Source: Candidatus Binatia bacterium (GTDB lineage Bacteria > Desulfobacterota > Binatia > Bin18). Taken from it: 64,000 nt of DNA. The notes under the pieces are model-generated. The model was not told where the DNA came from and ran no database searches. It saw only the letters and a program-made list of their open reading frames with translations. The number at the start of each line of letters is the position of its first letter. Position 1 is the first letter of the stretch. Below are positions 3,538 to 64,000 of the stretch, one piece after another. A program made the position numbers and the translations under genes. Location: assembly GCA_963666315.2 (NCBI GenBank), contig CAXXHG010000038.1, positions 64,001 through 128,000 on the forward strand, given 5' to 3'.

Positions 3538-4592
3538 TTATGGGGTTTCGATAATTTGTGTGACAGCGCGGGCTCGCGAGCCGAGCCAGGGCGGAATGAT
3601 GGCCCCAAATCCACCGGCTGGTCCGCCGGCTGCAATCACCAGCAGATCGTCGGGCGAACACAGGGCGGTAAACTTTTGATCAGCTCCTTTGCCCATATTC
3701 ACAATCTGTTGTTTGCCCACGGTCGCCCAATCACGCCGGACGACGCGGGCTGAGCGATATACATATTCCTGAATGTCTTTCTTTTGCCAGCCGGCAGCTG
3801 CAATCAGCTCGCGCAGTTGTTTGGGAAGGATCAAGGCATAATTCCCAGCCCAGATCGAATACGTCAGCATATTATGCCGTATTGCTGCGGCAAAGGTTTC
3901 GACAATCTCTTCCGGATCGTCTGTCCATTCATTCATCGCCTGATGGGGTGATTCTCCGGCCATGACCGTCACCGCAGATGTCCCGTGGGGAACGCCACGT
4001 TCTTGAGCCAACGGAATCCACGGACTGTCTTCTTCATCTTCAGCAATGCAAAATGTGAATTTGCCCGGATGACCCAGCGTGGCCCGGTCGAGTTGGCCGG
4101 GAATACAGCCCAGTATATTGATCAGAATCAGGCGAATAGCTCGACCTATGCTGCCGTTGGCACGGGTGCTATTGCCCAAGACATTATGGGTGGCATTCAG
4201 ACCAATTGCCTGCCGGATCGGACCGTTGACCACAATGAATTGGGCGCTGCCTCCGGTGCTGGCCGTACTGCCATGCAGGTTGAATTCTTCCTGACACATC
4301 GCTTTGAGAATCGCCACGACTACAGGCATATAGACGGGGAGACAACCGGCCATGACGGCATTGATGGCGACTTTCTCTGCGGTAATGGGGCCGCTGGCGG
4401 ACCGACTCCACTCCTACGACGTCATGCGGAGCTAACCCGGCTGCATCCAAGCAAGCACCTACGAGATCTGCAGTCGGGGGCAGGATCGGCAGGCCGTCAG
4501 TCCAGCCGCGCTGATGGTATACATCATTAACCGCCAGGATGTCTTTCAAGTTCGTAGGTTGGCGACTGAAGAGCAGTATGCGTGTGTGTCAC
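3538..4592 (-). CDS. Conserved UGSC-associated protein (about 350 aa), two apparent +1 frameshifts
   Basis: GTG at 4592 with GAGGA RBS; GWTDGLPILPPT and AINAVMAGCLP join if one base is removed at 4544-4546 and one at 4387-4390. Confidence 0.75.
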
Positions 4593-24657: not shown

Positions 24658-24849
24658 CTCAACCTGGAACTGGCGAAAAAACCGCCGGCCTGCCTGGAGT
24701 ATATTATTGTCCACGAATTAGCGCACCTGATTGAGCCGAGTCACAATAGTCGATTCACCGCCGTACTGGATCGCTTCCTTCCGCACTGGCAGCAACAGCG
24801 GGATGAGCTGAAACGGCTGCCGGTGCGGCATGAGGAGTGGGGATATTAA
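24658..24849 (+). pseudogene. YgjP/M48-like metallopeptidase C-terminal fragment
   Basis: LNLELAKKPPACLEYIIVHELAHLIEPSHNSRF...RHEEWGY*; no N-terminus. Confidence 0.85.
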
Positions 24850-51965: not shown

Positions 51966-54221
51966 TCACGGATTCATCAGATTCTCAGCGTCGCGATGTT
52001 TAGCCGGTTCTGTCGGCAGAGACCCCAATTTTGACCGTCGTTCTTCTTCAAACGCTTGTTCCAGTAATCCTTTCAGAGACTCTGGATTCACCGCCTCCTG
52101 GGCTGCCTCCTTCAGCGCACTCCGATCAGCATAGGCCATAATATCTTTGATCTTCGATCCTAAGAGCGTTCTCAGTCGCTCGTCATAGGTGTCCTCTGCA
52201 ATCAGACGATGGACATGCACGCGACGCAACTGACCAATACGCCGCGTTCTCGCGATGGCCTGCCATTCTGTCGTCGGCTTCGTCTGTGGCTCCATGATAA
52301 CAACAACAGATGCGGCCTGGAGATTCAGACCAACCCCGCCGGCATTGATCTGAGAGACGAGGATCGCGTGCCCCGGCTCGTTAGTGAACTCCTCAACAGT
52401 CCGTTGCCGCTCATTTGATGAAAGAGCGCCCGTAATCACGTAGCGCGTCCCACAGGTCCCTTGGACGGTTCGGACAATATCGAGATAGAAGGAGAACACT
52501 AGAACTTTCTCATTCGTTTCTTGATAATTCACGATGAGTTCGTCAAGCCGCTGCATTTTGCCGCTTTGTCCATCTCCACGTCCAATTGTGGCTGCACGCA
52601 AGGCATCGTGGTAGGTGCCTCCCATAAGGGCGTCCATATACGCGCCATGGTCCGTCGAGGTCAGGTCCACCCATTCATCTTCCTCAATCATTTCCGGTAG
52701 CTCCGGGAGAACATCTTCCTGTTTGCGTCGCAGATAGACAGGCGCAATGGCCTTCCGAAAGCGCAGCGGTCCTAGCGTGCCGGCGTCGTGCGAGTCGGCC
52801 AGGCGCCGACCAAGTGATGGTTGAAGCATGGCAATCAACGCGATCATCTCCGACGGACGGTTCTCGATAGGCGTTCCGCTCATCAGCATGGCGTAGTCAG
52901 CCCATTTTACAATGCGCTGCGCCTGATGAGACCTGTTTGCTGCGGGATTCTTCACATAATGGCACTCGTCGATGACGGCCAGATCGACTTGCGGTGGCAG
53001 TTTGCAAGACGCCCGTGATAAGGCTCCGAGCGAGATGATGAGTACGTCAAATTTCATCATCTTCTCCGAAACCTCGCGGGGGTTGGCAATATCAACCGTG
53101 AGGGACGTGAGTCGTTCGATTTCGTGACGCCACTGTGCACAGACGGGAGCTGGCGCTACGACAATGGCGTTGAGACGCTTGCGTTCACGTTTCAGATGCG
53201 TCGCCACAGCAAGGGCTTCTATCGTCTTGCCCAAGCCCATCTCGTCACCAAGCAGCACACGCTCCTGCGCTAATGCGAACTTCGCACCAAACGCTTGATA
53301 CCGTCTCAGCGAAATCTCTTTGAAGTGCGGGTGTAAGGGAGTCGCTTCGATCCGTTCGACTAGATCATCGCTCTTGAGTCCGTGGACTTTGCCTGGGTGA
53401 AAGCGGTCAAGGAGTAGTTCTATGACCTGAGTCCGGCTTTCGGCATAGAGATCGGTGAGAGACGATTCTGCTCGTTTAGCGTCTTTGCTTTCCAGATCGG
53501 CCTTGAGCGCGCGGGCAGTCTCTCGCGTCTCATCTACGTTTGACTGGTTGCGAGCGGTGGATACGTGCTCTCGTATGTGTACCGGCTTTTGTCCAGCCAG
53601 ACATCGAAGGAGCGCGCGGCGGTGCACCTTTTTCCAGGCGCGGTGCTCTTGTGGCAGAGCACGTTCTTGGGCAGCAATTTGCTCTTGAAACTCGTCATCA
53701 CTGTCGAGGAGGGCCAGGGCCGTCGTGGCGACGTTCGTCTCTTCAGGGAGCAAATGGGCTCCTGGGATGGCTGTCCAGTGTTCCTCCCAATATTCGTCGC
53801 GGAGGCTGTCTTTCAGAGAAAGGAGATTGAACAGAGCGTCGCCGCGCAGACGCGGGATTGTCGGAACGCCTCGGTCGACGTCCGCGATTCGGCTGTACCC
53901 GTCTGACTCAAGCCGCTCCACCCCCTGTTTCCCCAGCCCATCGACTTTGAAATCACGGATACGGAGTTTACGCCATTCCCGTTCAAACCGCTCTGTCGCC
54001 AATCTCCGGTATGCTATATCGAGCCGATCTTGACGTGTACTGAACTCATTGGCGGCCCAGGCCATATCAGCTTGGCAGCTCGCCAGGGTCCGTTTCCAGT
54101 CCCTTATTTCCTTGCGCCAGATGAACAAGTAATAGCGTGCCAAGAGGCACGTGATCACGATGATGACAGCAGCTATGCCGGCCAGCTCAGTTGTCACGGC
54201 GGACTCCTGTGGTGGGATCAT
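51966..54221 (-). CDS. SNF2-family helicase with N-terminal TM helix
   Basis: DEMGLGKT, DECH, SGTPIEN, QAIARTRRIGQ; hydrophobic N-terminus. Confidence 0.88.
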   Translation of the reverse strand: MIPPQESAVTTELAGIAAVIIVITCLLARYYLFIWRKEIRDWKRTLASCQADMAWAANEFSTRQDRLDIAYRRLATERFEREWRKLRIRDFKVDGLGKQGVERLESDGYSRIADVDRGVPTIPRLRGDALFNLLSLKDSLRDEYWEEHWTAIPGAHLLPEETNVATTALALLDSDDEFQEQIAAQERALPQEHRAWKKVHRRALLRCLAGQKPVHIREHVSTARNQSNVDETRETARALKADLESKDAKRAESSLTDLYAESRTQVIELLLDRFHPGKVHGLKSDDLVERIEATPLHPHFKEISLRRYQAFGAKFALAQERVLLGDEMGLGKTIEALAVATHLKRERKRLNAIVVAPAPVCAQWRHEIERLTSLTVDIANPREVSEKMMKFDVLIISLGALSRASCKLPPQVDLAVIDECHYVKNPAANRSHQAQRIVKWADYAMLMSGTPIENRPSEMIALIAMLQPSLGRRLADSHDAGTLGPLRFRKAIAPVYLRRKQEDVLPELPEMIEEDEWVDLTSTDHGAYMDALMGGTYHDALRAATIGRGDGQSGKMQRLDELIVNYQETNEKVLVFSFYLDIVRTVQGTCGTRYVITGALSSNERQRTVEEFTNEPGHAILVSQINAGGVGLNLQAASVVVIMEPQTKPTTEWQAIARTRRIGQLRRVHVHRLIAEDTYDERLRTLLGSKIKDIMAYADRSALKEAAQEAVNPESLKGLLEQAFEEERRSKLGSLPTEPAKHRDAENLMNP

Positions 54222-54431
54222 TTACTAATGGGTCATCTGTTGGCCCTCTGTCAACAGGCGACGCTCAAGAGGACCGCGCGCGTTTCGCCATTGCCGGCAA
54301 ATGACGGGTCGTACCTAGGGCGCGAGTGAACCCAGATAGGCCATGGTATCGACTCTCTTCGCTTGACCCCGGCATATCCCGCGCGGTACATTCCGGCATT
54401 ATCACGACACACATTAGGAGAGGGGGTCTTC

Positions 54432-54578
54432 TTGCCGGCAAACACCACGGAGATAGAAAAGCGGCTGTGGGATGCGGCGGATGAGCTACGCGCCAATTCC
54501 CGCCTCAAAGCATCGGAATACTCAGTGCCCGTCTTGGGTCTGATCTTCCTCAAGATCGACGTGAGGGAAGCCGCATGA
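54432..54578 (+). pseudogene. hsdM: Type I RM HsdM N-terminal fragment
   Basis: [35 protein letters not shown], then an abrupt end. Confidence 0.85.
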
Positions 54579-56830
54579 GCGAAATGTTATTCCAACAGGT
54601 CCAGTACAATCTGGAGGCGTTAGTCAATTTCATCGAGTTGGGACAGATTGGTCTGCCGAACATCCAGCGGCCCTTTGTCTGGAAGAATACCAAGGTACGC
54701 GACCTGTTCGATTCCATGTACCGAGGATATCCGGTCGGCTACCTGCTCCTGTGGCAAAACGGCTTTAGCGATGACATCCGCACCATCGGCACCGATCACA
54801 AGCAAACGGCTCCACGGCTCCTGATCGTGGACGGCCAGCAACGCCTCACCTCTCTCTACGCCGTTGTCAAAGGTGTCCCGGTGCTCCGAGAGAACTACAG
54901 CACCGAAACGATTGCTATTGCCTTTAGTCCGCTGTTAGAGCGCTTCGAGGTGGCCGACGCCGCTATCCGGCGTGACAAGTTCTATATCCCGAATATTTCC
55001 GTCCTCTGGAGCCCCGATACCGACCTGTTCGACCTGGTCGATGACTATCTCGAAAACCTGTCGTCGAATCGCGAGGTCAGCGCAGAGGAACGCAAACACA
55101 TCCGCAAGGTCATCCAGCGGCTCAGCAACTTGCTCACCTATCCGTTGACCGCGCTGGAGCTGTCTCCCAAGATTGACGACGAGCAAGTGGCGGAAGTTTT
55201 TGTTCGCATTAATAGTAAAGGGACCGCCCTCGTTGAGGCCGACTTTATCCTGACTTTGATGTCAGTCTTTTGGGATGATGGCCGAGCCGAATTGGAGACC
55301 TTCTGCCGCACGGCTCGCACGCCGACCGTCGGCGAGGCGTCCCCATTTAATCACTTTATCCACCCGGACCCGGATCAACTGCTGCGTGTCAACGTCGGTG
55401 TCGGATTCAAACGGGCGCGGCTCAAGTTCGTCTACTCCATCCTGCGGGGCAAAGACCTCGAAACCGGGCAGTTCAGTGCCGAGCGCCGGGACGCGCAATT
55501 TAAGATACTCAAACAGGCGCAGACTCGTACCCTCAACCTCCAATACTGGCATGACTTCTTTAAGGCCATTGTCCAGGCGGGCTACAAGGGAGGCCGGCTC
55601 TTTACCTCACAGAACAATCTGCTGTTCACCTACGTCATGTATCTGATCGGACGCACCGAATACGGCGTCGGTGAACGCACCTTACGGCAGGCCATCGCCA
55701 AATGGTTCTTCATGTGTAGCCTCACCGGGCGGTATACCCGCTCCCCCGAAAGCGACTTCGAGTTCGACTTAGCCCGGCTGCGTGAAATAAAAGACGGCGA
55801 CGCCTTCATCACCATGTTGCATCAGATTTGCGATACCACCCTGACCGGCGACTTCTGGACGCTCACGCTGCCGAACGAGCTGGCAACCTCCTCACCCAGG
55901 AGCCCCTCACTCTTCGCGTATTACGCCTCCCTCATCCTCCTAGACGCCAAAGCCTTGTTCTCCCCGCAACGAGTCGTGGACCTTATGGACCCCTCAGTGC
56001 ACGCGCGCCGCAATGCCATTGAGCGCCATCACCTGTTTCCGCTGGGCTATCTCAAAACCCTCGGCATTACCGATATCCGAGAAACCAACCAGATCGCCAA
56101 TTACGCCATTACCGAATGGAATGACAACGTGGACATCAGCGACCAGCCGCCGGCAGTGTATCTGCCACAACTGATAGAGCAAGTGGACGTCAAAGAACTG
56201 GATCGCATGACCTACTGGCACGCCCTCCCAGACGGATGGGAGAACATGAAGTACAGCGATTTCCTGACCCAGCGCCGGGAGCGCATGGCCCGTGTCATGG
56301 CCGACGCCTATAAGCGCCTGTCCGGCCCCAGCGAGGAAGAACGGCGCGGACAAGAGGTCTCCTTAGTCGATCTGATCGGAGACGGCGAAACGAGCCGGGT
56401 GGAGTTCAAAGCCACCTTGCGGGTCAATCTGCACACCGGCCAAAAAGACCCACGCATGGAGCTGGCCATCCTCAAGACCGTCGCCGGCTTTCTCAACACC
56501 CAAGGCGGGACGCTGCTGATTGGGGTGGGCGATCACGGCAATCCGGTCGGCATCGAGGCAGACGGCTTTGCCAATGAAGATAAGATGAACCTGCATCTCA
56601 TTCACCTGCTGCGGGATCGCATCGGGACCGCCAAACTCATGTATGTGCATCCCCGCTTTGAAGACCATGAGGACGAGCGGGTGCTCGCCGTCGATTGCTG
56701 GCCGGCCAAGTCGCCGGTGTTTGTCAAAGACGGCAATACCGAACACTTCTACATTCGCACCGGCACCTCGACCTCGGAGCTGACCTCCAGTCAGACCCAC
56801 GACTTCATTACACAACACTTCGACTCTTAG
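54575..56830 (+). CDS. GmrSD-like DUF262 + HNH-like protein fused to an AlbA_2/Schlafen domain
   Basis: [21 protein letters not shown]; ERHHLFP..NQIANY; [21 protein letters not shown]. Confidence 0.88.
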
Positions 56831-56842
56831 CTGACAATTATG

Positions 56843-56934
56843 ATGGCTAGCGACTACTCCGAAGATGTCCTTGTTGGATAGCCGACAATCGCCCTGTTGC
56901 CGAACTCGGCTACAAGACCGCCAATTGTCTCTAC
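56843..56934 (+). pseudogene. hsdR: Type I RM HsdR N-terminal remnant
   Basis: MASDYSEDVLVG*PTIAL/AELGYKTANCLY, with a stop and a frameshift. Confidence 0.55.
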
Positions 56935-56966
56935 GGGCAATCGATGCGTAAGGAACCCACATAGCC

Positions 56967-59366
56967 ATGGCCATCAAGAAATCCGACCTCTACTCATCGC
57001 TCTGGTCGAGCTGCGACGAGCTGCGCGGCGGCATGGATGCGAGCCAGTACAAAGACTACGTGCTCGTGCTGCTGTTTGTAAAATACGTCAGCGATAAATA
57101 TGCCGGCCAGCCCTACGCGCCGATTTCTATCCCTGACGGCGCGAGTTTTACGGACATGATGGCCCTCAAGGGGTCGAGCGACATCGGCGACCAGATCAAC
57201 AAGAAGATCCTAGGCCCCTTGGCCAACGCCAACGAGCTGTCCGACATGCCGGACTTCAACGACGCCACCAAGCTCGGCACCGGCAAAGAGATGGTGGATC
57301 GACTCACCAATCTGATCGCCATCTTCGAGAATCCCGCACTCGACTTCTCCAAGAACCGGGCGGATGACGATGACATCCTGGGCGACGCCTACGAATACCT
57401 GATGCGCCACTTCGCCACCGAGAGTGGCAAGAGCAAAGGGCAGTTCTACACCCCGGCTGAAGTGAGTCGTATTATCGCCCAACTGCTTGGCATCCGTGAC
57501 GCCGTCACCACTAACGATACAACTGTCTATGACCCGACCTGTGGTTCAGGCTCACTACTCTTGAAAGTGGGCGAACAGGCGACCGCACAGGTCACACTCT
57601 ACGGGCAAGAAAAAGATGCGGCCACTTCCGGCCTCGCCCGTATGAACATGATCTTGCATGATAACCCCACGGCGCTGATCCGGCAGGGCAACACGTTGAC
57701 CAATCCGCTGTTTACAGAAAATGGGCGGCTCAAGACCTTTGACTATGTGATTGCCAATCCGCCCTTTAGCGACAAACGCTGGAGTACCGGGCTCGACCCG
57801 CTCAACGACCCCCATGAGCGCTTTAGTCATTTCGGGGTACCGCCGGCCAAGCAAGGCGACTATGCCTATCTCCTGCATATTGTGCGCTCACTGAAGAGCA
57901 CCGGCACCGGCGTGTGTGTGCTCCCGCACGGGGTCTTGTTTCGCGGCAACGTCGAGGCCGACAGCCGCCGGAATCTGATCCGTCGGGGCTACATCAAAGG
58001 CATCGTTGGCCTACCGGCCAATCTCTTCTATGGCACGGGTATCCCGGCCTGTCTCATTGTCCTCGATAAAGCGCGCGCGGCGGCCCGCACAGGCATCTTC
58101 ATGATCGACGCCTCCAAGGGTTTCATGAAAGACGGCAACAAGAACCGCCTGCGAGAAATGGACCTCCATCGGATTGTCGATGTCTTCACCAAACAGCGCG
58201 AAGAGCCCAAGTATTCCCGCCTGGTGCCTTTTGAGGAAATAGAGAAAAACGAGTTCAACCTGAACATCCCGCGCTACATCGACAGCCAGGAACCTGAAGA
58301 CATTCAGGACATTGAGGGCCACCTACGCGGCGGGATGCCGGTAGCCGATGTGGATGCTCTGGAATCATATTGGTCGGTCTGCCCACACCTACGCGGGAGT
58401 CTCTTCAACGAGATGCGTCCCGGATACCTGAGCCTGGCCGTCGACACGTCAGCTATCAAGCCGGTCATCTATGAACACGCGGAGTTCGCCGGTTTCATCG
58501 CCCGGATGGAGGATCATTTTAATCAATGGCGCAATCAGGCCGTAGCGGGGCTCAAGTCCCTGGCGCAGGGCTGTCATCCCAAAACTATTATTACCGAGTT
58601 GAGCGAGGGCCTGCTCAACCACTACGCCGGCATGCCGCTCATAGGCAACTATGATGTCTATCAGCACCTCATGGATTATTGGGCCGCAATCATGCAGGAC
58701 GACTGCTATCTGATCGCCGCCGATGGGTGGAAGGCCGAGCCAGAGCGCATCATCGAGACAGATAAAAAAGGCAAAGAGAAAGACAAGGGCTGGGCCTGCG
58801 ACCTGGTGCCCAAGGCCCTTATTGTGGCCCGCTACTTTGCGGAGGAGCAGGCGGCCCTCACCGCGTTGGAGGCTGAACTGGAAAGTATCAGCGCGCAAAT
58901 GGCCGAACAGGAAGAAGAGCACGGCGGAGAGGAGGGTCTTTTCGCGGAGCTGGAGAAGGTAAACAAGGCCAACGTCACCGCCCGGCTGAAGGATATCAAA
59001 CGTGATCCCGATGCCAAGGACGAAGCCAAGGCGCTGAACGACTGGCTCATGCTCTGCAACGAGGAGGCAGCAAAAAAGAAAGTCATCAAAGAGGTCGATG
59101 CCGCCCTCGATGCCAAAGCGCTGGCCAAGTACCCGATGCTCAGTGAGGATGAGGTCAAGACGTTGGTGGTGGAAGACAAATGGCTTACGACCCTTGCCGG
59201 CGCTCTGCACGGCGAGATGGACCGCATCAGCCAATCTTTGACACAGCGTGTGAAAGAGCTGGCCGAACGCTATGAAACCCCGCTGCCCCAAGTCGGAAGC
59301 CAGGCTGCTGAGCTGGAGCAGAAAGTGAATTGCCACCTGGAGAAGATGGGTTTCTCATGGAACTGA
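56967..59366 (+). CDS. hsdM: Type I RM methyltransferase subunit
   Basis: GQFYTP, DPTCGSG, NPPF, LPHGVLFRG motifs. Confidence 0.95.
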   Translation: MAIKKSDLYSSLWSSCDELRGGMDASQYKDYVLVLLFVKYVSDKYAGQPYAPISIPDGASFTDMMALKGSSDIGDQINKKILGPLANANELSDMPDFNDATKLGTGKEMVDRLTNLIAIFENPALDFSKNRADDDDILGDAYEYLMRHFATESGKSKGQFYTPAEVSRIIAQLLGIRDAVTTNDTTVYDPTCGSGSLLLKVGEQATAQVTLYGQEKDAATSGLARMNMILHDNPTALIRQGNTLTNPLFTENGRLKTFDYVIANPPFSDKRWSTGLDPLNDPHERFSHFGVPPAKQGDYAYLLHIVRSLKSTGTGVCVLPHGVLFRGNVEADSRRNLIRRGYIKGIVGLPANLFYGTGIPACLIVLDKARAAARTGIFMIDASKGFMKDGNKNRLREMDLHRIVDVFTKQREEPKYSRLVPFEEIEKNEFNLNIPRYIDSQEPEDIQDIEGHLRGGMPVADVDALESYWSVCPHLRGSLFNEMRPGYLSLAVDTSAIKPVIYEHAEFAGFIARMEDHFNQWRNQAVAGLKSLAQGCHPKTIITELSEGLLNHYAGMPLIGNYDVYQHLMDYWAAIMQDDCYLIAADGWKAEPERIIETDKKGKEKDKGWACDLVPKALIVARYFAEEQAALTALEAELESISAQMAEQEEEHGGEEGLFAELEKVNKANVTARLKDIKRDPDAKDEAKALNDWLMLCNEEAAKKKVIKEVDAALDAKALAKYPMLSEDEVKTLVVEDKWLTTLAGALHGEMDRISQSLTQRVKELAERYETPLPQVGSQAAELEQKVNCHLEKMGFSWN

Positions 59367-60638
59367 GACCTGGTTACAAGCAGACTGAGGTGGGGGCGAT
59401 CCCGGAGGATTGGGAAGTTGGCTCTTTAGAATTTTTGACTGACCCGAGACGGCCCATCTCCTACGGTATCGTTCAGACAGGGCCGACTGTCCCGAATGGG
59501 GTGAGATGCCTGCGCGTCTTGGATGTTAATGATGGCCGAATAAGCAAGGACAAGCTCATAACGACAAGCAAAGAAATCAGCAGCGCTTACAAAAGAACCA
59601 TCCTAAAAGCTGGCGACTTGGTTATGCCGCTGCGCGGCAAAGTGGGAGACGTAGCAATCGTTGATCAGGACCTGGCTGGCTCCAATCTCACTAGGGGCAT
59701 CGCGCTAATTTCGATTCGGTCAGATTGGAGCGCCTCCTACAGTCAGCAATTTATTTCGTCGCCTGCCACGCGAAACAGGCTAGAGCACTCCTTAAACGGA
59801 TCGGCTTTACAGGAGATTCCAATAGCAACCTTACGCGCCTTCAAAATTGCCCTCCCCCCCACCAAAGCCGAACAAGAAGCCATTGCCCAGGCGCTCTCAG
59901 ATGCGGATGCCCTCATCGCATCCCTAGAGCACCCTCATCACCAAAAAACGCCGGATCAAACAAGGTGCCATGCAGGAATTGCTCACGGGGAAGAAGCGAC
60001 TGCCGGGGTTCGAGACTAATCCGGGTTACAAGCAGACCGAAATCGGAAGGATTCCAGAGGATTGGGAGGTTCACGGGCTGGGTCAACTCTGTAATTGTTT
60101 CTCTGGTGGAACGCCAAGTACTTCGAATCCTAGCTATTACGGCGGAAACATTCCATGGATTACTTCAAGTGATTTGAACAAGGAACGAATAACAGAAGTC
60201 GAAGGCCGCATTACTGATGCTGGCCTCGCAAATTCTTCAGCCAAGATCACCAACGAGAATTCATTGCTTCTAGCCCTTTATGGTGCAACTGCTGGAGTAA
60301 GTGCCATAACTGAGATACGGGCAGCGATAAACCAAGCTGTATTAGTGATTATTCCAGTTAGACTAAATGTCGATTACCTTTTTCAGTATCTACGACTGAA
60401 AAAGGACTCATACATCAAGACATATACCCAAGGTGGGCAGCCAAACTTTAGCGGCGAGATCGTTAAGTCATTTTTAATTCCGATCCCCCCCACCAAGGCC
60501 GAACAAACCGCCATCGCCGGCATCCTCACCGACATGGACACCGAAATCACCGCCCTAGAATCAAAACTGACCAAGACCCGCCAGCTCAAACAGGGCATGA
60601 TGCACAACCTGCTCGCCGGGAGGATTCGCCTGGTATGA
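59357..60638 (+). CDS. hsdS: Type I RM specificity subunit copy 1, +1 frameshift at 59932-59934
   Basis: Two TRDs, GYKQTE.G.IPEDW and PPTKAEQ.AIA repeats; one extra C relative to copy 2. Confidence 0.88.
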
Positions 60639-60748
60639 CCACCATCGGCACACCCGAACGAGTCACCCAGGACCGCGTCTGAAACCATGAGCAAGGTTGC
60701 TGAGCTGGAGAAGAAAGTGAACGGCCACTTGGAGCAGATGGGATACTC

Positions 60749-62084
60749 ATGGACATGATGAGCCGTTCTTCATGTCCGAAAGGGTACAAGCAGACCGAGG
60801 TAGGGGTGATCCCGGAGGATTGGGAGGTTGTCTGTTTATCTGACGTATTGGATGGGTTTCAGAATGGTTACGCTTTTTCTGCCCAAGCATATACTTCTTC
60901 GGGAGTGCCTATCGTAACAATGGCGCAAATCAGCCTCGATGGCTCGTTTCAGTTTGATGAGGCTATTGTAAATAACTGGGACGATGAAGAGGCTAAGAAA
61001 CTCAAGGCTTTCTTCGTAAATGATGGCGATGTCATTGTTTCCATGACTGACGTAACACCCTCCAAGAATCTGATTGGCAGAATGGCTTTGACCAAGCTCG
61101 ATAAGCCAGCTCTTCTAAATCAACGAGTGGGTTTACTACGGCTAAACAGGGATAGAATCCTTCCTGGGTATCTCGTCCCTTTATCCAATCAGAGTGCATG
61201 GCGAAGCTATTGCAAAGGAGCCGCTACCTTAGGAGTCCAGGCAAATATTGGAACGAAGGAGCTGAAAAATGGACTAATTCCTCTCCCCCCCACCATCGCC
61301 GAACAAGAAGCCATCGCCGAGGCGCTCTCCGATGCGGATACCCTCATCGAATCCGTTGAGCAACTCATCACCAAAAAACGCCAGATCAAACAAGGGGCCA
61401 TGCAGGAATTGCTCACTAGCAAGAAGCGCCTGCCGGGGTTTGAAATCAAATCCGGCACCAAGCAGACCGAGGTCGGGGTGATTCCAAACGATTGGGAAGC
61501 AAAGCAAATTCAAGAAGTTTGTGATTTCATCGTGCCAGGAAGAAACAGACCCCGAGTTTTCAACGGGGATATTCCCTGGATTACGACTCCCGATTTAGAA
61601 GATGGCAGAAATGTACATGAGTCCCGTTTGTCGCTCAGAGTATCGATAAGCGAGGCCAAGGCCGTCGGATCGAAGGTTGTTCCAGAAGGCTCAGTGTTGA
61701 TGTCGTGCGTTGGAGAATTGGGGATCGTGGCGCTGGCTGGACGTGACATTGTCATCAATCAACAACTTCATGCTTTCTTACCGACGGGAGCGATCAACCC
61801 AGTGTTCCTAGTTTACGCTATCAAGACCCAGGCATCTTATATTGAAAGCGTCGCAACGAAGACGGCTTTACCTTATCTGAATAAAGAAAACTGCAACTCA
61901 ATTCCAATTCCACTGCCTCCTCTTGCCGAACAAGAAGCCATAGCCGACGCGCTCTCCGACATGGACACGGAAATCGACGCCATACAATCAAAACTGACCA
62001 AGGCCCGCCAACTCAAACAAGGCCCGCCAACTCAAACAAGGCATGACGCACAACCTGCTGACCGGGAGGATTCGCCTGGTATGA
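60749..62084 (+). CDS. hsdS: Type I RM specificity subunit copy 2, reading through in frame into hsdR
   Basis: Hand translation is open from ATG 60749; TRDs differ from copy 1; 19-bp duplication at 61999-62036 bypasses the stop. Confidence 0.88.
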
Positions 62085-64000
62085 CCACCATCGGCACTCC
62101 CGAACGAGTCACCCAGGACCGCGTCATCACACTCTTCCGGGAAGAGCTGGGCTACGACTATCTCGGCGACTGGCAAGATCGTGCCGACAACAGCAACATC
62201 GAAGAAGACCAGCTCACCGCCTATCTAAAAAAGACCGGCTACAGCGCAGAGCAAATTGCCAGGGCGCTGCACGCGCTTCGCACTGAAGCCAACAACCCGA
62301 ACCGCAGCCTCTACGACAACAACAAAACGGTCTATGGCCTACTCCGCTACGGCGTGCCCGTGAAAGCGGCGGCTGGCGAAAACACCGAAACCGTCAAACT
62401 CATCAATTGGGACGAGCCGGCAGCAAACGACTTCGCCCTTGCCCAAGAGGTTACCCTCAAAGGCAACCACGAACGCCGGCCTGACCTGGTGCTGTATATC
62501 AATGGCATCGCCGTGGGCGTCATCGAACTCAAGAACAGCCGCGTCTCCATTGGCGATGGTATTCGCCAGAACATCTCCAACCAGCAAAAAGAGTTTAACC
62601 AATGGTTCTTCGGTACCGTGCAATTCGTCTTTGCCGGCAATGACAGCGAGGGACTCAAATACGGCACCATTGGCACCCCGGAGAAATACTACCTTCAGTG
62701 GAAAGAAGACGAGGCCGACAATACCCGCTTCACGCTCGACAAATATCTACTCAAGATGTGCGCCAAGGACCGGCTCATCGAATTGATACACGACTTCGTG
62801 CTCTTTGACGGCGGGATCAAGAAACTGCCGCGCGTGCACCAGTATTTCGCCGTGAAGGCCGCCCAGCAGCGGGTCGATGAAGGGAAAGGCGGCATCATCT
62901 GGCATACCCAGGGCAGCGGCAAAAGCATCGTCATGGTGCTGCTGGCTAAATGGATGCTGGAGCACCAGCCCAACGCGCGGGTGGCCATCGTTACCGACCG
63001 CGACGATCTGGACAAACAGATCGAGAGTGTTTTCTCCGACGCCGGCGAGGACATCTACCGCACCCGCAATGGTAGCGACCTCATGACCCGGCTCGGCCAC
63101 GCCACGCCACGACTGATCTGCTCGCTGGTCCATAAGTTCGGCAAAAAGGAAGTCGATAATTTCGAGCAGTTCATCACAGAACTTGAGGCCCAGCCCTGCC
63201 ATACCGTCGGCGATATTTTCGTGTTCGTGGACGAGTGCCACCGCACGCAGAGCGGCAAGCTGCACCGCACCATGAAGGCAATCATGCCACACGCGGCGTT
63301 TATCGGCTTCACCGGCACGCCGCTGCTCAAGAAAGACCAGCAGACCAGCCTGGAAGTCTTTGGCCGCTATATCCATACCTACAAGTTCACCGAAGGGGTC
63401 GAGGACAAGGTGATCCTCGATCTGGTCTATGAGGCACGTGACATCGACCAGCGTATCGGTTCCGAAGACAACATCGACGCCTGGTTCGAGGCCAAGACCA
63501 GGGGTCTCAACGACTGGCAAAAAGGGGTGCTGCGCGAGCAGTGGGGCACGATGCAGCAGGTGCTCAGTTCCCGCTCTCGTATGGATAAAGTGGTGCAGAA
63601 CATCGAGCTTGATTTTGCGGTGAAGCCCCGGCTGGCCAATCAACGCGGCACGGCCATGCTCATCGCCGCCAGCATCTACGAAGCCTGCAAATACTTCGCG
63701 CTGTTCCAGCGCTCAACGCTCAAGGACAATTGCGCCGTGATCACGTCCTACAGCCCCCTGACACAAGACATCACCCTGGAGGACACCGGCGCCAATACCG
63801 AGACGGACAAGGAGTTCATTTACCATACCTACACCGAGCTACTGAAAAATATCGACGCGCGCCCGGGCAAGACCAAGACCGAGACCTACGAAGAGGATGC
63901 GAAAGACCTCTTCAAAAAGCAGCCGGCCAATATGAAGCTCCTGATAGTGGTAGACAAGCTGCTCACCGGCTTCGACGCGCCGAGCTGTACCTATCTCTAT
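62081..64000 (+). CDS. hsdR: Type I RM restriction subunit (3' end outside the window)
   Basis: RPDLVLYING..IELK, WHTQGSGKS, DECHR, GFTGTP, VVDKLLTGFDAP motifs. Confidence 0.95.
   Translation, partial: MTTIGTPERVTQDRVITLFREELGYDYLGDWQDRADNSNIEEDQLTAYLKKTGYSAEQIARALHALRTEANNPNRSLYDNNKTVYGLLRYGVPVKAAAGENTETVKLINWDEPAANDFALAQEVTLKGNHERRPDLVLYINGIAVGVIELKNSRVSIGDGIRQNISNQQKEFNQWFFGTVQFVFAGNDSEGLKYGTIGTPEKYYLQWKEDEADNTRFTLDKYLLKMCAKDRLIELIHDFVLFDGGIKKLPRVHQYFAVKAAQQRVDEGKGGIIWHTQGSGKSIVMVLLAKWMLEHQPNARVAIVTDRDDLDKQIESVFSDAGEDIYRTRNGSDLMTRLGHATPRLICSLVHKFGKKEVDNFEQFITELEAQPCHTVGDIFVFVDECHRTQSGKLHRTMKAIMPHAAFIGFTGTPLLKKDQQTSLEVFGRYIHTYKFTEGVEDKVILDLVYEARDIDQRIGSEDNIDAWFEAKTRGLNDWQKGVLREQWGTMQQVLSSRSRMDKVVQNIELDFAVKPRLANQRGTAMLIAASIYEACKYFALFQRSTLKDNCAVITSYSPLTQDITLEDTGANTETDKEFIYHTYTELLKNIDARPGKTKTETYEEDAKDLFKKQPANMKLLIVVDKLLTGFDAPSCTYLY

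Follow-up and report, generated by a model that had tools for sequence, protein, structure and literature searches.

The closest described relatives of the locus treated here are type I restriction-modification operons of the order hsdM-hsdS-hsdR, distributed among many phyla, in which the hsdS stop overlaps the hsdR start. Precedents for repeat-driven switching of hsdS are NgoAV, with its poly-G tract, and the REBASE survey of Atack et al. (PMC7383803), where a change in the repeat number shifts the hsdS frame and changes the HsdS polypeptide; according to the accessible part of that survey, the tracts have many copies of units of 1-9 nucleotides (nt), always lie between the two target recognition domains (TRDs) and yield a half-HsdS. 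Meanwhile, fused type I subunits were engineered by removing the frame offset at the overlapping junction, as in the M-S fusion of EcoKI (PMC3510504) and the M-S and nuclease-HsdM fusions of the staphylococcal CC398-1 system (PMC6158711). As far as the portions at hand of both reports go, these constructs join M with S or a nuclease with M, and the M-S forms keep both partners complete. The present text concerns a type I locus in a 64,000-nt stretch of DNA, called the window, from Candidatus Binatia bacterium (assembly GCA_963666315.2, contig CAXXHG010000038.1, positions 64,001 to 128,000), where the second of two hsdS genes, hsdS2, is joined in a single open reading frame (ORF) to a shortened hsdR, named hsdR', through a perfect 19-nt tandem duplication.

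Compared with the operons of this order, including those of the same-genus genomes G001 and G022, the locus has the same domain sets, an HsdR of 75-76% identity, the same S tail and the ATGA overlap, but it differs in its tandem hsdS cassettes with flank remnants, the 19-nt duplication, a frameshift of hsdS1 (in this assembly) and a 3'-truncated hsdR. Unlike the phase-variable tracts, its unit of 19 nt occurs twice, at the extreme 3' end of the gene, reads into hsdR and is known from two-unit sequence; in contrast to the engineered M-S constructs, the S-R fusion truncates both partners. The locus is probably a decaying type I system, dead for restriction, in which a slipped-strand duplication between CAAGGC hexamers produced the fusion as an incidental outcome.

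The 19-nt duplication and the frame at the hsdS2/hsdR junction

The junction and its two partners comprise the following features:

60749-62023, plus strand: hsdS2 part of the fused ORF, with two TRDs and the central and C-terminal conserved regions up to ...KQG (Methylase_S in 2 stretches, 7.9e-39; translation)
61999-62042, plus strand: 19-nt unit in 2.3 copies, a perfect tandem duplication, the putative ancestral unit being bounded by the direct hexamer CAAGGC (direct reading, Tandem Repeats Finder)
62024-62080, plus strand: 19 out-of-frame codons joining S to R (translation; the canonical frame ends with TGA at 62082-62084)
62064-62070, plus strand: GGGAGGA, Shine-Dalgarno-like, 10 nt before the hsdR ATG (direct reading)
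62081-64000, on to window-equivalent 64690, plus strand: hsdR', with nuclease and motor domains (Pfam), without the C-terminal ~200 amino acids (aa)

By direct reading, the unit CAAGGCCCGCCAACTCAAA is present in perfect copies at 61999-62017 and 62018-62036, followed by CAAGGC at 62037-42, as reported in a first-pass annotation of the window. The same tract is found by Tandem Repeats Finder (61999-62042, period 19, 2.3 copies, 100% matches) with a score of 88, the top of 32 rows in the whole window, where the runner-up scores 54; the chance expectation of a perfect 25-nt echo is ~5e-9 in 64 kb. At the corresponding place hsdS1 has a single unit, in agreement with that annotation, although in a diverged form.

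Regarding the reading frame, the hsdR ATG occupies 62081-62083, and the distance from 60749 is 1332 nt, or 444 codons, just as had been calculated. One S-R ORF results because the extra 19 nt bring hsdS2 into frame with the hsdR ATG that it overlaps. This ORF, announced as longer than 1080 codons and running past the window edge, is indeed open at the 3' edge after 1084 aa and reaches 1313 aa in the contig, carrying two Methylase_S stretches and then HSDR_N, SWI2_SNF2/ResIII and T1R_D3-like domains, as seen by Pfam. Read without the shift, this DNA specifies the canonical HsdS tail of 13 residues, closed by a TGA (62082-62084) that overlaps the hsdR ATG; the two-unit allele has 19 out-of-frame residues (62024-62080) in its place, so the reported replacement of the last ~13 HsdS residues stands. 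In a computed one-unit form of the locus, the hsdR frame is open 59 codons upstream of its ATG. In addition, hsdR' could also start on its own from the GGGAGGA site, to which this role is assigned from its sequence and spacing. A promoter scan of 56700-62600 returned 1 promoter-like site (minus strand) against 3.0 expected and no separate signal for hsdR, and the terminator scan of the same interval returned 10 sites against 6.9 expected, not above chance.

Direct hexamer repeats are a classical substrate of slipped-strand duplication. The locus runs from hsdM through hsdS1, two short remnants (one of an hsdR start, one of an hsdM end) and hsdS2 to hsdR'. In the proposed course of events, its hsdS2 would once have had one 19-nt unit bounded by CAAGGC, and mispairing between the two hexamers would have doubled this unit, adding 19 nt and shifting the frame by +1. 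The shifted ribosome would then pass the stop in the ATGA overlap and read into hsdR, giving a product composed of HsdS2 minus its conserved 13-residue tail, 19 out-of-frame residues and HsdR'. Separately, hsdR' has itself lost ~200 C-terminal residues. Methylation by HsdM and HsdS1 may persist in cells with an intact hsdS1.

Unit number in other data sets and the question of a switch

Four sequencing runs with a depth of 2-7x were compared as contigs, a comparison that bears on the presence of a unit number only. Both units are crossed with 0 gaps by record 13 of run X2 (726 nt, 61366-62091) and by record 19 of run X3 (797 nt, 61298-62091), these two runs belonging to a study other than that of X1. 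Two records of X1 meet at the tract, one (record 2) running to 62028 and the other (record 3) from 62013, and both contain sequence possible only from at least two units. Moreover, a protein of 1313 aa, P0001 (from a cluster of 6 members), is on record in the protein database from another assembly, with a contig of 250,886 nt compared to the 158,014 nt of the window's contig. It is identical to the fused ORF in 1306 of 1313 residues, with the same junction and C-terminus, and six of the seven differences fall in the hsdS2 central conserved region, where they equal the hsdS1 version (P0001 residues 183-212; window 61295-61384), which marks a gene-conversion tract that links the two hsdS genes of a sister strain.

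By all these records, the duplication is real, heritable DNA. The first-pass annotation had named an assembly artefact, with one unit in the raw reads, as an outcome that would undo its claim. An assembly or sequencing error of this kind would be helped by the draft state of the genome (47 contigs, 92% complete), by the low depth of the runs and by the extra C of hsdS1, which is not reproduced in X1; nevertheless, it is very improbable and already largely refuted, because two other runs (the independent X2 and X3 contigs) and the second assembly carry two units, both X1 contigs require at least two, and a perfect 19-nt duplication is untypical as a read error.

Regarding other alleles, exact-pattern scans for the S-tail/hsdR-head junction gave 0 matches in genome contigs and 0 in metagenome contigs, sets that may lack near-identical records, and a DNA search of 55 genomes of the family, including its own genome, retrieved nothing above 73% identity outside the latter. 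Among proteins of 233-744 aa, none is near-identical to the one-unit HsdS2, the best having 78% identity along 45% of the query, or 45-49% along its full length. Similarly, none of the metagenome loci with HsdS2 relatives (80 kept of 125) is close, with best segments of 71%, and the ancestral one-unit allele was not found among them; in these same loci, this tail family occurs in 28 and the tail followed by a stop in 11, with 0 fused. The sole allele of this hsdS2 on record is the fused one.

Frame outcomes were also computed for 0-5 units. As 19 nt is not divisible by 3, a change in the length of the tract shifts the frame, and 1, 2, 3, 4 and 5 units lead to ORFs of 438, 1313, 438, 457 and 1332 aa. 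One unit would give a canonical HsdS2 coupled to hsdR, two the S-R read-through, three an early-stop form and four a 19-residue in-frame insertion. Tandem duplications are reversible by the same slippage that creates them, and the locus could accordingly act as a reversible slipped-strand switch, where the number of units toggles hsdS2 and changes the specificity subunit serving HsdM. In a graph simulation with k=31, the X1 ends at 62028 and 62013 are reproduced exactly if k-mers of at least three units are present, while a mixture of one and two units gives ends at 62023 and 62018 and two units alone give no break. As an internal control, the same logic predicts that contigs overlap by 24 nt at the 36-nt repeat of both S tails (60616, 62062), as they do. 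At ~6x, the contig ends of X1 thus fit a third unit, equally well as a mixture and as a pure form of at least three units.

The difference in the hsdS1 state between the window and X1, as well as the precedent of NgoAV and of the survey, within the part of it consulted (PMC7383803), also point towards switching. However, a switch seems unlikely, since the tract has merely 2.3 copies of a long, 19-nt unit, compared to the many copies of 1-9 nt lying between TRDs in the tracts described in that same portion of the survey (PMC7383803). All data sets spanning the tract, namely the window, X2, X3 and the P0001 strain, have two units, the third unit of X1 being deduced from contig ends and not directly observed, and the one-unit product is absent from the records of 233-744 aa. 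In addition, as hsdR is truncated, the 'on' state would not bring back restriction.

Losses in both partners and S-R fusions among relatives

The tail removed from HsdS2 was compared with a set of 45 hsdS tails, taken from 88 tail hits in 50 of 80 loci and covering genomes of many phyla. The last 15 HsdS residues, QGMM..LLTGRIRL[VI], are near-invariant, with L at -9 in 45/45 and G at -6 in 42/45, and 13 of these 15 are gone from the two-unit allele; no motif of the HsdS family is better conserved than this replaced tail. In three loci of the family (L037, L039 and L052), the hsdS frame goes on for ~200-210 codons past the conserved RIRL tail, to near hsdR, which may be due to another fused gene or to a naturally extended C-terminus.

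Meanwhile, the other partner is shortened at its opposite end. The HsdR part of the fused ORF has 869 aa, and four orthologues of 75-76% identity, with open frames of 1045-1181 aa, align to its residues 1-838/839 only; the hsdR gene of G001 (1041 aa) has a common sequence with hsdR' up to ...YEADMRHLI and diverges afterwards. Thus, nuclease and motor domains are present, and the complete set of a full-length HsdR (nuclease, two motors, helical and C-terminal domain) is not encoded. The last 202 aa of the orthologue have no match in the 92%-complete genome. The break is directly followed by the 3' end (~53 codons) of a YgjP/M48-like peptidase gene in opposite orientation, which retains the HExxH motif; in G001, this gene lies 3' of hsdR on the same strand. 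The lost C-terminus, its absence from the genome and the inverted ygjP fragment at the break therefore indicate that a rearrangement removed the hsdR 3' end, an event separate from the 19-nt duplication. The ~160-nt ygjP-like piece (L025 10561-10724, window-equivalent 64560-64723) is found again in the window at 24688-24848 (94%) and elsewhere in the genome at G000:C43:389361-389479 (91%), and the three copies suggest recombination between type I-associated ygjP copies. The sister strain represented by P0001 has the same hsdR truncation. The first-pass annotation missed this loss because hsdR continues beyond the window.

In EcoR124I, HsdR is believed to attach to the methylase core through the corresponding C-terminal region, by which it would be docked. 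As hsdR' has lost this region, restriction by the locus is probably already dead and the fusion incidental. The choice previously offered, between a natural fusion enzyme and an on/off switch, is thus left without support, considering that hsdR' lacks its C-terminal ~200 aa, that the lost HsdS tail is the most conserved one and that only the fused allele is on record; in turn, the case that was to count against it, a fused allele that is fixed and inactive, agrees with the truncated hsdR and with that allele being the only one recorded.

The S part was matched against proteins of 722-2298 aa, yielding 19 matches, which mostly combine Methylase_S with M-type methylase domains. HsdR domains are present in 3 of the 19, namely P0001, which is the studied locus, P0004 and P0005; the last (1010 aa, S and R domains) was dropped as evidence due to its many out-of-frame stretches. 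P0004, encoded at locus L036 of a Candidatus Acidiferrales metagenome-assembled genome, is a clean S-R fusion of 1424 aa in the same frame. It belongs to the same family and shares the junction frame, with a lesion within the same few codons as the duplication (L036 about 4150-4230); however, this lesion is a 14-nt deletion instead of a 19-nt duplication, the HsdR is full length, and the case is known from a single contig.

Among the 80 loci fetched with P0004, the hsdR start could be placed in 75, and hsdS abuts hsdR in 13, including the query L036. With the query left out, 0 of 12 such loci are fused, and in these 12 the hsdR frame is open 15-75 codons upstream. Because the hsdR frame is already open there, any late +1 shift in hsdS gives an S-R ORF. 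The fusion is not conserved among relatives (0/12 abutting loci, 3/19 long matches) and, as judged from these loci, is an expected by-product of any +1 shift late in hsdS and not a conserved design. Among the matches listed from the type I fusion literature, in the parts of the texts available, no S-R fusion is described, the fusions there being M-S and nuclease-M only.

A working S-R enzyme, where the covalent link tethers an HsdR devoid of its docking domain to the methylase core and so restores restriction, is improbable, as it would have to work without the near-invariant HsdS tail. Moreover, type I enzymes have a stoichiometry of R2M2S1, in which a single S cannot hold both R subunits. 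In its favour, both strains combine the truncation with the fusion, P, T, Q, D, E and S abound in the 19-residue joint, as in a flexible linker, and P0004 offers a second, independent fusion in the same frame. Nevertheless, such fusions are very rare, one of the three being the studied locus itself and another frameshift-ridden, with none in the other abutting loci, and the Acidiferrales HsdR is complete, hence needs no rescue. The engineered precedents divide as well: in the sections available of the respective reports, M-S fusions of EcoKI (PMC3510504) and of the staphylococcal system (PMC6158711) are active, while the laboratory nuclease-HsdM fusions show no restriction (PMC6158711). Quite improbable, and slightly more so than a working enzyme as such, is an adaptive duplication, by which a single-chain S-R type I enzyme would re-tether the motor-nuclease and be toggled by the unit number (1-4 units giving four products), with the Acidiferrales fusion as its second instance.

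The preferred explanation, a decaying locus with an incidental fusion, also has several observations to face. The fused allele is shared by two strains with 7 residue differences, which could mean retention and not drift, and no stop interrupts the remainder of the 1313-codon ORF. The contig ends of X1, which fit a third unit, would make the tract unstable, as in a switch. Likewise, the unrelated Acidiferrales genome has its own same-frame S-R fusion with a full-length HsdR, and the role of the missing HsdR region is borrowed from EcoR124I, a member of a different type I family.

Organisation of the locus, its surroundings and significance

Upstream of hsdS2, the locus is composed of the following features:

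56967-59366, plus strand: hsdM, intact, 799 aa (N6_Mtase PF02384 8e-99, HsdM_N PF12161; the same-genus orthologue has 798 aa)
59357-60638, plus strand: hsdS1, two TRDs, split into two ORFs (extra C at ~59932 in the central conserved region; canonical tail; stop overlapping an ATG)
60635-60682, plus strand: hsdR 5'-end remnant, 15 codons and a stop (44/45 nt identical to 62081-62125; direct reading)
60687-60758, plus strand: hsdM 3'-end remnant, 23 codons, with a stop overlapping the hsdS2 start (repeat D7, 59298-59366 vs 60690-60758, 58/69 nt identical)

HsdM has the N6-adenine methylase domain that characterizes the modification subunit of type I systems. Concerning hsdS1, its two ORFs (59330-60019 and 59970-60638) both contain Methylase_S by Pfam, and the frameshift site reads CACCCTC compared to CAACTC in hsdS2, so that the gene is frameshifted as assembled, just as described before. 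A 3223-nt contig of X1 has 0 other letters when aligned to 58800-60645 and one letter fewer at 59932, which leaves hsdS1 as an open frame and a canonical gene of 426 aa. Either the strains differ in the extra C or the consensus of the draft is wrong here, the coverage of X2 and X3 excluding this site. As assembled, neither gene gives an HsdS with two TRDs and complete conserved regions, hsdS1 being split by a +1 shift and hsdS2 lacking its tail. The earlier statement that no canonical HsdS is encoded consequently holds for the locus of this assembly but does not extend further, as hsdS1 of X1 lacks the extra base and contig C6 carries another hsdS. This belongs to a second type I locus (G000:C6:15223-19182), with an HsdS frame open for 444 aa and an HsdR frame open for only 637 aa.

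The remnants reflect the tandem arrangement of the cassettes. A unit made of an hsdM 3' tail, hsdS and an hsdR 5' head occurs twice in tandem (59298-60682 and 60690-62127), with different TRDs, an arrangement that the first-pass annotation does not mention. The flanks of the two units are 84% identical for the M tail and about 94-98% for the R head (repeat D5, 60572-60679 vs 62018-62125, is 94% identical), and the remnant ORFs preserve the chain of overlapping stops and starts. The hsdS pair is a direct repeat and not an inverton; the orthologous locus of the same genus (G022) has one hsdS with the canonical tail.

The surroundings resemble a defence island. Upstream (window 51966-56830), there are a SNF2-family helicase, on the minus strand, and a protein with GmrSD_N and Schlafen AlbA_2 domains, while downstream (L025 10835-17999) there follow a ResIII/endonuclease of 1019 aa, an N6_N4 methylase of 676 aa, a 254-aa protein without Pfam match and an UvrD-like helicase.

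Regarding its significance, the locus carries a practical warning: where the hsdS stop overlaps the hsdR start, late +1 shifts yield gene calls of long 'fusion proteins', and both partners of such S-R ORFs should be checked before a new architecture is claimed. If one of the minority readings were true, type I systems would gain something new, either a switch at the S/R junction set by the copy number of a 19-nt unit or a functional S-R enzyme in a single chain; each would bear on the origin of single-chain restriction enzymes from multi-subunit ones. Taken as a decaying locus, which is its probable nature, it would be an ordinary case of the decay of a restriction system, which begins with the loss of the endonuclease and continues with drift of the specificity genes.

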